Shown here: positions 3,001-7,413 of the stretch, piece by piece | How the letters are laid out: every line of letters begins with the position of its first letter | Position numbering within the stretch: the first letter of the stretch is position 1 | Source of the DNA: a bacterium | GTDB taxonomy: Bacteria; Fidelibacterota; Fidelibacteria; Fidelibacterales; Fidelibacteraceae | NCBI GenBank assembly: GCA_963676395.1 | Contig: OY781066.1 | Location: 1,952,001 to 2,016,000 of the forward strand | DNA: 64,000 nt | Direction of reading: 5' to 3' | Made by a program: the position numbers

Positions 3001-6000
3001 AAACCTATAATTTCAATTACGCCTTTTATTTTTTATCTTGTCAAAGTAAATTACATGCAATACTAAACTAAGGGTAATTCATGTTCATTACATTCGAAGG
3101 AATAGACGGCTCAGGTAAAAGTGAACAAGCAAAACGTTGCGTAGAATACTTATCTAAAGACAATGATGTGTTTCATTGTTTTGATCCCGGACACACCGTG
3201 ATTGGGAATGCGGTAAGATCGGTTCTTTTGAATAAAAAACATATGGAAATGGATGCGATTACAGAGCTATTGTTGTATGCAGCTGCTCGTTCTCAATTGG
3301 TATCTGAAGTGATTGAACCCCAATTAAAATCCGGTAGTATCGTTGTATCTGATCGATTTTACGATTCTACCTCAGCATATCAAGGGTATGGACGCGAACT
3401 ACCTTTAAAGCTGGTAAATACCTTAAATATGATCGGCGCTCATGATCATAAACCGGATATTTGTTTTATTATTGATACTGATATTGATGTATGTGCTCAA
3501 CGTATTGGTAAAGCCGACCGCATGGAAGGTGAAGGTCGTGAATTTTGGGTGAAAGTTCGAGATGGCTACAGAACGCTTGCTGAAAATGAGCCTGAACGTT
3601 GTAAATTGATCGATGGAAATAGAACAATTCTTGAAATACATGAAGAGATTATCGGGATTGTTAATGATAGACTCAAATAATCCGGCATTATCGCCAGACC
3701 AAATGCATTTATTAACTATTCATTGAAAAATATCAATAACCTCAGATTTAAATCCAAGGTTATTGATTTATATTCTGACTTCTGACTTCTGATAATATAA
3801 ATTTACTCTTTGATTGCATGCCCCCTCTCGGTAAATTTATAAAAATATTGAATTATTTTGAAACATCCGCGCTACTGATTTGTTTTAGTATTAATTTTAT
3901 TAACAATAGGCCTCCAATGAAACGATTAATTAAAATAGCAATAATACTATTTTTCCTCTCAACGCTGCTCTTTGCACAGTTTGGGCAAAACAAGGTTCAA
4001 TATGATGTGTTTAACTGGAATTATATTCAAAGTAAACACTTTAATATTTATTTTAACGGTGATAATAAAGCCGTATCGGATTACTGTGCGAAAACTGCGG
4101 AAGCCGCCTATGAATCGATTTCAACCCTTTTAGACTGGGATCTTAAAAAACGCTATGCTATTATAGTATACGATTCACATAATGATTTTCAACAAACCAA
4201 TACCACTAATTCCTATATGCCGGAAGGTGTAGGCGGTTTTACCGAATTATTTAAGAACCGTGTTGTTGTCCCTTACGAGGGATCATATCAAGCTTTCAGA
4301 CATGTAATTCATCATGAGTTGATCCATGCATTTATGAATGACCTCTATTATAGCGGTAGTATACAGTCCTTGATCTCAGGTGCCGTAAAATTGAATATTC
4401 CTCTGTGGCTAGCAGAGGGTTCGGCTGAATATGAATCGTCTCGCTGGGATACCGAAGCAGATATGTTTATGCGAGATTTTGCATATAATTCTCAGTTTGA
4501 AGCATATCCTTTAGAAGCTTTAACCGGTTACTATGCTTATAAAGGTGGCCAAAGTATCTTTAAATTTGTTCGTGAAACTTATGGTTATCAAAAATTGACC
4601 GAATTTTATACTAAGATGAAGATATATCTTGATGTTAATAAGGCCATACGGTTTACTTTTAATATGTCTAAAGAAGAATTTACCGAAGAATGGCATCATT
4701 ATCTTAAAAAGATATATTGGCCGGATATTAGTATGACGGAGGATGTTAAGGATATTTCCGTTCGCTTGACCGACCATAAAAAGATGCGCAATTATCAAAA
4801 TATTGCTCCGGCTATTTCTCCTTCAGGAGATAAGATTGCTTTTTTGAGTGATAAAAAAGGCTATGCCGATATTTATTTAATGAATGTTCAGGATGGTAAA
4901 CATATTCGGCGTTTGGTTCGTGGTCAGCGGAAAGCAAGTTTGGAAGAGCTCAAGTGGTTATCACCCGGTATTTCTTGGTCTGCCGATTCTAAGCATATTG
5001 TTTTTGCCGCAAAAAGCGGACAGTATGATGCCCTTGTGGTTGTAGATGTAGAAAATGGTAAGCAGGAATTTTATCCTATGCCACAGTTGCAAGGTGTGTT
5101 TTCGGCAGCTTTTCATCCCTATGATAATTCTTTGATCGCTTTTACCGGTCACAATGGTTCACAAAGTGATATTTATATGTATGATCTTGATGATAAGGTA
5201 TTGGTGAATTTAACCAATGATCCTGAAGGGGACAGTAATCCCCAATGGTGTTATTCCGGAGAAAATATCATCTATGTCAGTGAGAGGGATAAAAGTAAAG
5301 CCTTTCGCGATCCGCGCCACCCTTATCAAACGGATATTTATCAGGTTAGTATTAAAAATAAGGACAAACTTGCTTTAACTGAAAGTGACGCAAGTGAAGA
5401 TTACCCTTACTCCGATCCTAAAGGGCGAGGATTGATCTATACTTCCGATGAAAATGGTATTTTTAATATTTATATCAAGAAAAATGATGAAAGTGCATAT
5501 CCTATTACCAACGTGGTTGGTGGTATATTTCATTTGAATCTTGATCAAACAGGCGAAAATCTGATTTTTTGCGCCTTTAAAGATTACGGCTGGGATATTT
5601 TTAGGATGAATGATCCTTTCGAAATGGATAAGAAGGATCTTGCTTTAACACGTTATGCAAAAGAAAGTATGGCTACACCTTTTGATCTGACCGAAGATGT
5701 TTTGAAAAAGGAACGAAAAACACGTCCGGATGATAAAATAAAAAAAGATAAGCGCCGTGTTGTTCGAGGAAACGATAATGTTCAAAGAGTTTCAGATTAC
5801 AAGAATTATGTATTTGTTCCGACCTATGCTTACGGAGAAACATCGCTTGATTCACAAGTTGTTGCTTTAGATTCTACCGAGATCATCAATGAAGAGGGTG
5901 ATTATATCGATAAGCCCTATAAGACAAGGTTCTCGCTTGACCTGGTAGATAGTCAATTTGGTTATTCTACTTTTTATGGTATGCAGGGGCAGGCAACATT

Positions 6001-7413
6001 CATGTTTTCTGATGTCATGGGAGATCATCAGGTCTATATCGGAACGGATCTTTATATTGATCTCCAAAACTCAGATTATGCTCTAGCATATTATTATCGT
6101 AAGTATCGTCCAAATTTCGGTTTTGTGCTCCAAAATCAATCCGATAATTATATTACTTACATTTCCGGCGAAGTATCCGAAACAAATCCCTATGGTTATT
6201 TTGTTACCCGCTATACCAATAGAAGTCTGCATTTTATTGCCGATTATCCCATCAATAAGCATTTGCGTTTCGAATTGAATAATTCCTATTACTATGTGCG
6301 TCGTGATCTTCTGGATAAAGATCAGAGCATTGCGGCCCAATATGATGCCGATATTCATGAATATCGTGCTGAATTGGCTTTGGTAAAAGATAATACGGTA
6401 TTTTCTTATACAGCTCCTATGGATGGATCACGATATAGATTAAGTCTTGAAATGTCGCCCAAGATCACACCTGAAACACCGGAATTCTATTCAGCAAAAC
6501 TGGATTACAGGCAGTATCTTAAATTAAATGATAATTATCATCTAGCCTTTCGTTTTAACGGTGGTGCCTCATTTGGTCCCAATCCTCAAACTTTCTTATT
6601 AGGTGGCATTGATAACTGGATCAACTATTATTACAATGCCGATGCACCTATTTTTGGCAATAGCGGAGAAAGTTTTTCAGAACAACTGAGTATGTATTAT
6701 TTAAGTGAGTATATCATGCCGGTACGCGGGGCGGCAATGTTCCAGACCTGGGGTGATAAGTTCATACTTATGAATGCCGAGTTAAGATTTCCTTTTATTG
6801 AATATGCAAAACTGGGTTTACCCCCGATACAGTTTTTCCAGGTACGCGGCGTACTCTTTGCCGATGCCGGATTTGCCTGGACAGATGAGCTTAATTTAGT
6901 CAAGAACAATGGCTGGTTCATCGGAAACGAATGGGATGATCTCATTGGTTCCGTTGGCATGGGTGTTCGCGTTTATCTTGGTTTTGCTCTCTTGCGTATT
7001 GATTGTGCCTGGGAATATAATGGCGAGGAATTCTCTAGTCCACGGTGGTTGTGGTCATTGGGTGGGGATCTGTAAGAATTTTTAAAATTGAAAATGAGAA
7101 TCTGGAATCAATAATGTTCGTGCGCCATCCTGAATGATCTCTGTGGAAATTGATAGAGACAGTCACATTGACCGACGCATAGTGGCACGCGCGCCAAAGC
7201 TTTAGTATAGGTGTGAGAGATCTATTAATTTCTAGACACTATTATGCATCTATGATATGGACGAATCGTGCCATAATTTACCCAAACAAAAAAGGACTAC
7301 GAAAGTAGTCCAATATATTTTTTACAATTCAATATGTAAATCGCTTAAAGCACATCCTATCACAAAATCTTCAAGCATACGAGAACTCTGATAATGGCAT
7401 TCGTCGATAATTA

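Follow-up and report, generated by a model that had tools for sequence, protein, structure and literature searches.

A WD40-like Omp85 protein of the Fidelibacterota with a predicted gluzincin zinc-peptidase domain

What might a protein do that carries a zinc peptidase and a beta-propeller on the N-terminal side of an Omp85 outer-membrane barrel, and is such a protein a new kind? The question is raised by a gene at positions 3917..7075 of the forward strand in a window of 64,000 nucleotides (the whole stretch of DNA analysed) from a bacterium of the Fidelibacteraceae. The open reading frame is uninterrupted from an ATG at 3917 to the stop codon at 7073-7075 and encodes 1,052 amino acids, to which relatives match end to end. 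A second in-frame ATG lies upstream at 3818; the alignments of relatives begin at residue 1 of the 3917 start. A phmmer search against 1.84 billion representatives returned 23,448, 4,855 and 1,314 proteins at E<=1e-3, 1e-10 and 1e-30 respectively, the last figure reproducing the count given in an earlier note on this locus.

Architecture and family membership

The protein is made up of five parts. A signal peptide comes first, followed by a zinc-peptidase domain of the gluzincin type, a TolB-like propeller with six blades, a flexible linker that varies among relatives and an Omp85 barrel of 16 strands; a POTRA domain is lacking. This is the domain order that the earlier note had proposed, and it is borne out by Pfam and by a full-length AlphaFold model built from a 60-sequence alignment (pLDDT 85.4, pTM 0.85). 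Residues 1-20 (3917..3976; all features of the gene lie on the forward strand) read as a putative signal peptide, MKRLIK followed by a hydrophobic run to ...LLFA, in which no lipobox cysteine was seen by eye; pLDDT falls below 50 in this region, at residues 1-4 and 11-21. The mature N-terminus FGQNKVQY (residues 22-29; 3980..4003) is conserved in the alignments, with F22, G23, N25 and K26 invariant among 24 and among 71 relatives, and it served as one of two patterns used to collect a set of loci.

The TolB-like (PD40) propeller occupies residues 295-565 (4799..5611), where DSSP assigns six four-stranded blades to the model; Pfam places PD40 at residues 295-320 (E 6e-10). When the full-length model was compared using VIA-align, TolB was the closest structural match of the entire protein (Z 27.9, rmsd 2.2 over 243 residues, 16% identity), which together with the six blades agrees with the TolB-type propeller described previously. 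The propeller is common to this protein and TolB of the Tol-Pal system, but the N-terminal domain of TolB is unmatched, the best structural alignments spanning TolB residues 164-410 only, and unlike TolB this protein has a barrel of its own as anchor. The TolB equivalog model TIGR02800 gives a partial match, 93.6 bits against a cut-off of 343.15, with the best stretch covering model positions 194-299 only.

A flexible polar linker (residues 566-667; 5612..5917) follows, consisting of two short helices and then a disordered stretch, with pLDDT below 50 at residues 604-650 of the full-length model. Its length varies from 73 to 234 residues across the relatives in the 60-sequence alignment. The N-terminal domain is the best-conserved part of the protein: its mean pairwise identity in that alignment is 44%, ahead of the propeller (36%), the barrel (35%) and the linker (16%).

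The barrel comprises residues 668-1052 (5918..7072). PF01103 (Omp85) matches residues 731-1037 with E 3.8e-15 and 56.7 bits against a gathering cut-off of 24, and DSSP finds 16 strands between residues 672 and 1048 of the model. Comparison of the barrel with BamA barrels gave Z 21-22.7, the best having an rmsd of 4.5 over 309 residues, and with Sam50 a Z of about 21; the 16-strand BamA/TamA-type barrel claimed earlier therefore stands. The loop-6 motif P-V-R-G (residues 935-938; 6719..6730), which we take to be the Omp85 L6 signature (V/I)RG(Y/F), is conserved in 60 relatives, R937 being invariant and P935 and G938 present in at least 90% of them. The full stretch is P-V-R-G-A (935-939), so that Ala and not Tyr or Phe occupies the fourth position of the signature. 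The strand-13 motif F-A-D-A-G (F981, D983, G985; 6857..6871), presumably the FxDxG motif of Omp85 strand 13, lies in strand 971-988 and is kept in at least 90% of 60 sequences.

No POTRA family of Pfam matched the 1,052-residue protein at E<=0.1, and no beta-alpha-alpha-beta-beta unit of the POTRA type is found between residues 566 and 670 of the model. Three Omp85 paralogues of the same genome (BamA, TamA-like and PlpD-like) served as a positive control and do match POTRA, so the absence that had been reported is confirmed.

The missing POTRA is the defining trait of the WD40-like Omp85 subfamily, already catalogued by Heinz and Lithgow in 2014 (Front Microbiol 5:370; PMC4104836), and the protein is a member of this subfamily and not a new kind. 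All the subfamily traits of their Tables S2 and S3 are present, an Omp85 barrel, a TolB-like propeller and an aminopeptidase-like region with no POTRA, and we found no structural difference between the two architectures. For this subfamily Table S3 includes a column headed 'best aminopeptidase hit', and H1XQ58 appears there with BamA c4k3bA 100, TolB c2ivzD 100 and aminopeptidase c1z5hB 99.4. The main text of the same paper describes a platform resembling a 'BamA-BamB fusion', contains no occurrence of the word 'peptidase' and discusses no active site; its 'Metallo' subfamily is a separate group (PF00149). The aminopeptidase column, a 2024 paper that mentions 'WD40 and peptidase domains' and the NCBI name of some relatives, 'peptidase MA family metallohydrolase', tell against the earlier statement that no active site had been proposed for the subfamily. 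We found no functional study of the family in the literature. What is newly added here is the invariance of the catalytic set, the coverage of 150 of the 151 genomes of the phylum, a clade without the zinc site, the fold likeness to M30, M9 and M1 peptidases and a lineage-limited adjacency to PorU.

The 'OMP-TolB-like' and 'FhaC-TolB-like' proteins described in 2025 (Mol Biol Evol; PMC12204202) also combine an outer-membrane barrel with a periplasmic six-bladed TolB-like propeller and are often auto-annotated as TolB, as are degenerate relatives here. In that paper's section on these proteins a 'Rossmann fold' is placed next to them and no peptidase is mentioned. Matched by description and not by accessions, this group and the WD40-like Omp85 family are likely identical.

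The zinc-peptidase domain

Residues 22-290 (3980..4786) form a predicted gluzincin (clan MA, Peptidase_MA_2-type) zinc-peptidase domain. The match to Peptidase_MA_2 (PF13485; cut-off 32.4 bits) covers residues 75-264 and scores 28.3 bits when the full sequence is the query and 31.9 bits (E 1.4e-7) when only the first 300 residues are, nearly identical to the sub-threshold figures reported before; in the genome search the match reached 31.6 bits by itself and 32.8 when scored 'with its neighbours in the frame'. The N-terminal domains of all 71 relatives match the same family at E<=0.01, the best at 2.7e-18.

The earlier note lacked a search with the N-terminal fold alone, and this was carried out with a model of the isolated domain (pLDDT 82.6). 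The top of its fold-match list contains only zinc peptidases: M30 lugdulysin (Z 15.1, rmsd 3.9 over 234 of 273 residues), M9 collagenases (Z 12.2-14.5, the best being a Vibrio enzyme at 14.5), M1 aminopeptidases (Z 11-13.4) and thermolysin of family M4 (Z 9.2). Foldseek gave eight matches at E<=1e-3, each of them M1, M9 or M30. Judged by this model, the domain is a genuine MA-clan (gluzincin) peptidase fold. Its fold relatives share 8-16% sequence identity with it, and no sequence-level match was found among solved structures. The M30, M9, M1 (PepN, F3, ERAP) and M4 enzymes share the fold of the catalytic domain (Z 9-15) and the succession of HExxH, a downstream Glu and a Tyr; the 1,052-residue protein has none of their accessory domains. 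M1 aminopeptidases have an HExxH-X18-E spacing of 18 residues and a GxMEN motif. In the protein studied here the spacing from H137 to E167 is 29 residues, no Pfam match to M1 (PF01433) was found, and the GxMEN exopeptidase motif could not be aligned, an hhalign comparison with E. coli PepN having a probability of 2% and ending short of the GAMEN strand.

The sequence HELIH (4313..4327) supplies two predicted zinc ligands, H133 and H137, and a predicted catalytic base, E134, and lies within helix 124-145 of the model. The predicted third zinc ligand, E167 in WLAEG, lies within helix 163-175, and the stretch from E167 to E171 spans 4415..4429; Y208 (4538..4540) is a candidate transition-state-stabilising tyrosine. 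In the low-probability hhalign alignment with E. coli PepN, HELIH pairs with HEYFH, E167 with the Glu of the LKEG motif and Y208 with the Tyr of TVYEKG, which we take to be a catalytic residue. Across 60 full-length relatives of 27-81% identity, 13 of the 21 invariant columns fall in the N-terminal domain, among them H133, E134, H137, E167, E171 and Y208. The first four are also invariant in alignments of 24 and 71 relatives, and E171 and Y208 in that of 71. These alignments point to strong purifying selection on the catalytic residues, and the zinc peptidase is seemingly active.

Distribution and loss of the zinc site

The gene is a core gene of the phylum. It was detected at E<=1e-20 in 150 of 151 genomes, including all 95 of high quality and all 60 genera, is near-universally single-copy, and is kept even in genomes of 0.8-1.1 Mb; all seven paralogues sampled in the phylum have an intact catalytic site.

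The invariance of H133, E134, H137 and E167 asserted in the earlier note applies to the subfamilies sampled and does not extend to the family as a whole. Of 36 distant Bacteroidota copies that were examined, 23 have other residues in place of HExxH and Y208, and often of E167 too; these belong to a large clade (Cytophagales) and retain the full 1,100-residue architecture. These degenerate relatives carry the annotation 'translocation protein TolB' and keep the mature N-terminal motif FGxN[KR]xQY, with F/Y22, G23 and N25 retained in 22 of the 23 copies, the exception being a weak second copy (L114). Since the clade keeps the architecture without the zinc site, proteolysis cannot be the sole function of the family, and the module's binding of a substrate or partner must be a function under selection in its own right. 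The ancestral or main role may thus be one without catalysis.

Possible roles and genomic neighbourhood

We tentatively favour the reading that the protein is a constitutively present periplasmic metallopeptidase, tethered to the outer membrane and concerned with upkeep of the cell envelope. The product would be Sec-exported and its canonical 16-strand Omp85 barrel inserted in the outer membrane. From the periplasmic start of barrel strand 1 a flexible linker of 70-230 residues would be suspended, bearing at its far end a rigid two-domain module of gluzincin zinc peptidase and then six-bladed TolB-like propeller. The propeller would hold or filter unfolded polypeptide or peptide, the HExxH...E...Y site would cut what is held there, and the barrel would keep the enzyme fastened to the outer membrane's inner face, perhaps docking substrates as well. 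Both this division of labour and the catalytic activity of the peptidase domain are what we infer from the features above. The periplasmic location of the module would follow from Omp85 topology and from the precedent of PlpD, a patatin-like protein of Pseudomonas aeruginosa with an enzyme domain N-terminal to its Omp85 barrel, for which the published account reports an experimentally shown periplasmic enzyme domain (PMC11116518). PlpD is the best functional precedent; it differs in having one POTRA, a lipase instead of a peptidase and no propeller, and in forming homodimers. The neighbours of the gene in the phylum are mainly housekeeping genes (radA, tgt, a NUDIX gene and tmk) and do not point to a pathway, and across different lineages envelope-biogenesis genes recur next to it.

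It is possible, if rather unlikely, that the core job is non-catalytic and that the barrel-anchored propeller module acts as a TolB-like tether or scaffold, binding an envelope partner such as a Pal/OmpA-like protein, peptidoglycan or, via the conserved N-terminus, a TolA/TonB-like protein, with the peptidase an add-on that has decayed in some lineages. The propeller as closest structural match and the Cytophagales clade, which loses the zinc site, keeps architecture and N-terminal motif and is annotated as TolB, are consistent with this. Nothing in the genome reaches the NCBIfam cut-off for TolB, the best TolB-like match being the 3917..7075 gene, and such outer-membrane proteins are proposed as ancestors of TolB in PMC12204202. 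Against it, in most lineages no positions of the protein are better conserved than the catalytic residues, which is not what a decaying add-on would show, and the N-terminal domain of TolB has no counterpart. No tol-pal cluster surrounds the gene, whose neighbours are tmk, tgt and porU, and the best Pal-like gene of the genome likewise lies among unrelated neighbours, outside any tol cluster.

The boldest proposal of the earlier note was a self-contained outer-membrane quality-control machine, a fused analogue of BamA and BepA in which the barrel seam would capture stalled or misfolded beta-barrel precursors as BamA does and the protease would cut them. BepA, a periplasmic metalloprotease of family M48, carries a TPR domain and acts at the BAM complex. 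The likeness lies in the proposed job, that of a zinc protease at the site of outer-membrane-protein assembly with a protein-binding repeat domain; BepA has a TPR domain and is a separate soluble protein, whereas here a propeller takes that place and is fused to a barrel. The 1,052-residue protein has no Pfam match to M48 (PF01435) at E<=0.1 and none to TPR, a propeller following the peptidase domain instead. The best 50 fold matches listed for the N-terminal domain, a list that is not exhaustive, include no M48 chain either. 'BepA-like' is reduced to an analogy. The intact peptidase site, the core status of the gene and the retained Omp85 signature motifs would suit such a machine, as would the genome's content: no BepA-type M48-TPR protease was found, and its sole M48 peptidase (a single PF01435 match) is of the membrane-embedded Ste24/HtpX type with a five-helix membrane domain. 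However, being structural, the L6 and strand-13 motifs would be expected in a mere anchor too, an ordinary five-POTRA BamA is already present, and the clade without a zinc site retains the protein. With the lack of an M48 family match, these points make the proposal unlikely.

An accessory role in type IX secretion (T9SS), in which the protein would process or remove cargo, the C-terminal domains cleaved from it or cargo that has stalled at the outer membrane, is suggested by the T9SS sortase gene porU (8796..12686, forward strand; NF033707, 612.6 bits against a cut-off of 420), the second gene downstream. The two genes are adjacent in all eight genomes of the genus in which they share a contig (compared by hand), porU lies 2-4 kb away in 9 of 42 listed Bacteroidota genomes with both on one contig (again by hand), and a T9SS plug gene abuts the WD40-like Omp85 gene in locus L167. 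Among 301 Bacteroidota genomes 182 have both the gene and PorU and 68 neither, but 23 have the gene alone and 28 PorU alone, and the correlation is confounded by shared ancestry. Adjacency to porU is conserved only in this genus and one Bacteroidota subclade: in a flank search of 164 loci PorU was confined to the window, L003 and L165, a PorV-like gene turned up in L045 alone apart from a weak case in L245, and in a complete genome of the sister genus the two genes are 393 kb apart. Since tgt lies on the opposite strand between them in the window, they do not form an operon; a terminator-like hairpin (7294..7311), found by consensus scan only and usable on both strands, separates the gene from the convergent tgt. 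We regard this role as quite unlikely.

In 19 of 84 loci, from Ignavibacteria and one Bacteroidota lineage, a TamB/AsmA-like gene, the RNase R gene and the WD40-like Omp85 gene lie on one strand with gaps of 9-42 nt. Of the two TamB genes in one Ignavibacteria genome, the first adjoins a TamA-like gene and the second is found two genes upstream of the WD40-like Omp85 gene, and in the same 84 loci mlaE directly follows the gene in six and an LpxH-like gene is divergently upstream in 32. The protein could then be the outer-membrane partner of a TamB/AsmA-like bridge, its barrel taking the role of TamA for a second TamB paralogue, or serve lipid/LPS homeostasis otherwise. This is improbable: the single TamB of the present genome adjoins its own four-POTRA Omp85, 50 kb from the gene, the POTRA arm is absent, each synteny is limited to one lineage and may be inherited and not selected, and the peptidase is left unexplained.

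Most improbable is a surface-displayed or released peptidase, exported through the barrel in a type V-like manner to digest external protein as food. A 16-strand pore might in principle let the long disordered linker through, and export is among the options for enzyme-bearing Omp85 proteins named in PMC4104836. Yet a folded module of 550 residues would need to pass the barrel, PlpD, the one enzyme-Omp85 fusion known to have been tested, keeps its enzyme in the periplasm (PMC11116518), and a near-universal single copy, even in 1-Mb genomes, suits housekeeping better than foraging.

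Architecture and active site

The target gene occupies positions 3917–7075 of the window on the forward strand and is read as one uninterrupted frame of 1,052 codons. The ATG at 3917 was taken as the start, rather than the in-frame ATG at 3818, because relatives align from residue 1. Pfam assigns Omp85 to residues 731–1037 (56.7 bits against a cut-off of 24) and PD40 to residues 295–320, and Peptidase_MA_2 at residues 75–264 just misses its cut-off of 32.4 bits, scoring 28.3 bits with the whole protein and 31.9 bits with the first 300 residues. The NCBIfam model for TolB matches only partially (93.6 bits against 343). 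A full-length AlphaFold model built from 60 sequences (pLDDT 85.4, pTM 0.85) contains six four-stranded propeller blades at residues 295–565, a disordered stretch at 604–650 and 16 barrel strands at 672–1048, and comparison of this model by VIA-align gave likeness to TolB at Z 27.9 (rmsd 2.2 over 243 residues) and to BamA at Z 21–22.7. Together these show that the peptidase, propeller and barrel anatomy proposed in the earlier note is real. The absence of POTRA domains was also borne out, as no POTRA family matched at E ≤ 0.1, while three paralogues of the same genome, the BamA, TamA-like and PlpD-like genes, do match POTRA.

This architecture is that of the “WD40-like Omp85” subfamily (Heinz & Lithgow 2014, PMC4104836). 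Table S3 of that paper has a “best aminopeptidase hit” column, in which the exemplar H1XQ58 is given c1z5hB, 99.4, and several relatives are named “peptidase MA family metallohydrolase” by NCBI. In the portions available of three later papers, a 2024 Leptospira Omp85 study mentions “divergent WD40 and peptidase domains”, Hanson et al. 2024 count the WD40-like group with the uncharacterised targets that they call “intriguing”, and PMC12204202 (Mol Biol Evol 2025) proposes “OMP-TolB-like” proteins as TolB ancestors, the peptidase not being named there. A full-text literature search found no functional study of the subfamily. The target protein belongs to an already known, uncharacterised kind; the novelty claimed for it holds as far as functional study is concerned, but its peptidase part was already present in Table S3 and in the NCBI names.

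The N-terminal domain (N-domain) was modelled in isolation (pLDDT 82.6) and compared with 48,161 PDB representatives, and on its own this fold confirmed the suspected zinc peptidase. The top matches are zinc peptidases throughout, with which Foldseek is concordant: M30 lugdulysin is best (Z 15.1, rmsd 3.9 over 234 residues), Vibrio M9 collagenase gives Z 14.5, M1 aminopeptidases Z 11–13.4 and thermolysin Z 9.2. M48 chains are absent from the best 50 fold matches and the family has no Pfam match in the target protein, so that “BepA-like”, the term used in the earlier note, can stand for a possible job and not for a family. An N-domain profile searched against all PDB chains retrieved two designed repeat proteins at E > 1 and nothing else; the domain is, as judged by sequence, without a solved relative.

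For a closer view of conservation, target residues 21–293 were aligned with their counterparts from 70 species genomes. This 71-row alignment omits 10 of 80 loci (L021, L029, L033, L047, L048, L051, L052, L055, L057 and L073), for which the motif filter left no suitable frame or the stretch was unusable. All 71 N-domains match Peptidase_MA_2 at E ≤ 0.01, the best at 2.7e-18. Across 60 full-length relatives, down to 27% identity, 21 columns are invariant, 13 of them in the N-domain (G23, G107, T109, R115, G122, H133, E134, H137, E167, G168, E171, Y208 and G211). Conservation is highest in this domain and lowest in the linker (16% identity, 73–234 residues). The first set of loci was gathered with the motifs GG[VF]TEL[FY]KN and FG[QK]NKV[QI]Y, HExxH not being among the baits, and the second, metagenomic set with the HExxH stretch itself; because loci were gathered by them, the bait motifs are biased to invariance in their own sets.

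We also aligned the N-domain by hhalign with residues 181–466 of the Escherichia coli M1 aminopeptidase PepN, to locate what corresponds to the GAMEN strand; the alignment, with a probability of only 2%, starts past that strand. Within this low-probability alignment HExxH lies opposite PepN HEYFH, E167 opposite the Glu of LKEG and Y208 opposite the Tyr of TVYEKG. No M1 peptidase was found in the window's own genome, hence there is no internal comparison. The peptidase of the target lineage is probably active.

Distribution and loss of the zinc site

A repeated phmmer search returned exactly the 1,314 representatives at E ≤ 1e-30 counted earlier. The closest relatives carry the record names Marinimicrobia, Neomarinimicrobiota or Fidelibacterota, and other record labels include Calditrichota, Kapaibacteria, KSB1, Latescibacteria and more. 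Cultivated relatives include Ignavibacterium and Melioribacter by record title, and Caldithrix abyssi is the source of H1XQ58. N-domain matches at E ≤ 1e-20 occur in 150 of 151 sampled genomes of the window's phylum, where 95/95 high-quality genomes and 60/60 genera are positive, genomes of 0.8–1.1 Mb included. Bacteroidota, the phylum that includes the Ignavibacteria genome G001, has a match in 205 of 301 sampled genomes. With at least 582 species genomes encoding a relative, this is no marginal family.

A second, shorter paralogue is present in some genomes, and all seven sampled keep the catalytic residues. The 429 shorter matches are mostly tagged ‘partial’ or lie on contigs of 1–6 kb, and they provide no evidence for a barrel-less, split or soluble form among close relatives. 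The copy in L003, the closest relative on a long contig (1.63 Mb), is broken in its target region (6911–10122) into frames of 482 aa and more (P0402, 448 aa), the result of either a frameshift or a long-read assembly or polishing error. Another sampled genome has a strong N-domain match (G225:C4:869861-870598, E 1e-126) with one in-frame TGA and an open frame of only 293 aa, perhaps a pseudogene, perhaps an error of sequencing.

The HExxH...E signature, which the earlier note took to be invariant, is so in the 60 full-length relatives but not in the family at large. Among 36 copies drawn from the weaker Bacteroidota matches, 23 have lost H133, E134, H137 and Y208, and usually E167 too; the site is intact in 12 of the remaining 13, and one copy (L117) did not align to the profile. 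In the strong Bacteroidota matches the site is intact in 20/20 sampled. The degenerate proteins keep a length of about 1,100 residues. Among them, L165 has no Pfam-recognised domain and aligns to the family profile over 1,006 columns with a probability of 100%, through N-domain, propeller, linker and barrel. The N-terminal mature motif FGxN[KR]xQY is kept in 22 of the 23, the exception being a weak second copy (L114). The close relatives of these copies are Cytophagales proteins (from Marinoscillum, Ekhidna and Cyclobacteriaceae) that go under the annotation “translocation protein TolB”. Genomes with a degenerate copy appear to be without an intact one, since the degenerate copy is the best match there. 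The zinc site has been lost and the scaffold kept, and a non-catalytic function is therefore under selection in this clade.

Readings of function and gene neighbourhood

The best-supported reading, which we put at somewhat below an even chance, is that the target acts as a periplasmic metallopeptidase, tethered to the outer membrane and serving a core role in the envelope. By analogy with Omp85 topology and with PlpD, the experimental precedent for a periplasmic enzyme domain on an Omp85 barrel (described in the available part of PMC11116518), the peptidase–propeller module should be periplasmic. By its distribution the gene has an essential-looking envelope function in a major environmental bacterial group, the marine Marinimicrobia/Fidelibacterota, and its subfamily, catalogued but unstudied, would add a protease to the Omp85 scaffold.

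A TolB-like scaffold role is a live rival, to which the propeller fold and the degenerate clade both relate. No TolB above cut-off was found in the window's own genome, and in place of a Tol-Pal context the best Pal-like gene there sits among AAA_13 ATPase, HipA-like and helicase genes. The intact and zinc-site-lost lineages amount to a natural experiment separating catalytic from scaffold roles, and their pairing is relevant to the idea, put forward recently, of a barrel-anchored ancestor for TolB.

An accessory role in type IX secretion (T9SS) is likewise live. The window has the order tmk, target gene, convergent tgt and then porU (8796–12686, forward strand), whose 1,296-aa Peptidase_C25 product carries a T9SS C-terminal sorting domain and matches NF033707 at 612.6 bits against a cut-off of 420. 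The next gene is maf and not porV, the usual partner of porU; the best PorV-like candidate is found some 31 kb past the window end. Compared by hand, all 8 genomes of the window's genus that carry target and porU on a single contig have them adjacent; in the sister genus, a complete genome has 393 kb between the two. Hand counts in Bacteroidota place porU 2–4 kb from the target in 9 of 42 genomes with both on one printed contig, the zinc site being degenerate in 5/5 of those nine with the motif examined. Both proteins occur in 182 of 301 Bacteroidota genomes, the target only in 23, PorU only in 28 and neither in 68, a correlation among related, non-independent genomes in which both exception classes are frequent. 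The T9SS linkage is real but confined to particular lineages. As a general rule it was rejected: tblastn of two PorU, a PorV-like and T9SS plug proteins against 164 loci put PorU in the flank of only three (window, L003, L165) and the plug in just one (L167); PorV-like matches came from L045 and, at weak strength, from L245.

The third live rival is a TAM-like role. Neighbours vary by lineage in a survey of 84 loci, and in 19 of these (Ignavibacteria and one Bacteroidota lineage) a TamB/AsmA-like gene, RNase R and the target lie on one strand with tight spacing. Complex prediction, made without control runs, paired the barrel (14-row alignment) with the last 450 residues of the TamB-like neighbour from Ignavibacteria (17-row); its scores of 0.00 and 0.01, where the mark is 0.32, speak neither for binding nor against it. 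Elsewhere in the survey, Marinimicrobia have a divergent LpxH-like gene (32/84 loci), a HEAT-repeat gene and an unknown gene upstream and radA, tgt and a NUDIX gene downstream, and mlaE lies directly 3′ of the target in 6/84 loci (Calditrichota and a few others). Eighty further metagenomic loci repeat these patterns and add murA and a GWxTD-domain gene.

A bolder and improbable proposal is that the protein captures and cuts in a single chain. The POTRA-less barrel would grip beta-signal-bearing polypeptides by its lateral seam, candidate substrates being outer-membrane proteins that have stalled, or T9SS cargo together with its C-terminal domains, and the tethered, propeller-gated gluzincin would then degrade them; in Cytophagales relatives the scaffold would have become a holdase or a TolB-like tether with no catalysis. 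All Omp85 proteins studied so far, to our knowledge, assemble or translocate proteins or, as PlpD does, carry a lipase, and this one, if the proposal is true, would have a degradative role instead. The outer-membrane quality-control machine of the earlier note is possible but has no specific support.

Further genes of the genome and of related loci

The window spans C1:1952001-2016000 of a 2,335,625-base contig. At 3732–3767 a 16-pair inverted repeat (ATCAATAACCTTGGAT...) separates tmk from the target gene; it was flagged as terminator-like on the minus strand and may be a tmk terminator or a regulatory hairpin. Further upstream, 647–1849 (forward strand) encodes a protein of 400 aa, in which a thioredoxin-like domain of AhpC/TSA/ResA type makes up the C-terminal third and the N-terminal 250 residues have no Pfam match. 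A similar gene sits upstream of the target in locus L004. At other loci murA lies directly before the target (8/9 loci of its neighbour cluster, L239 among them), and the GWxTD-domain gene directly after it at seven loci of other lineages (L202 and six more).

Besides the target, the window's genome encodes a five-POTRA BamA, a TamA-like protein adjoining the sole TamB, a short Omp85 and a protein resembling PlpD. The PlpD-like protein (G000:C1:184660-188304, 735 aa) has Patatin, POTRA and weak Omp85 matches and is the second enzyme-bearing Omp85 protein of this small genome. The genome has one M48 peptidase, of the membrane-embedded type. A second Peptidase_MA_2 protein (at G000:C1:1619005-1622529; 299 aa, 50.2 bits) carries HETTH, WFNEGFAQY and a hydrophobic C-terminal stretch, and has the look of an N-domain relative anchored in the membrane. 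The Ignavibacteria genome G001 (locus L040) has two TamB genes, one adjoining a TamA-like Omp85, and on its contig C6, some 7 kb from porU, another frame of 1,079 aa matches Omp85 weakly.
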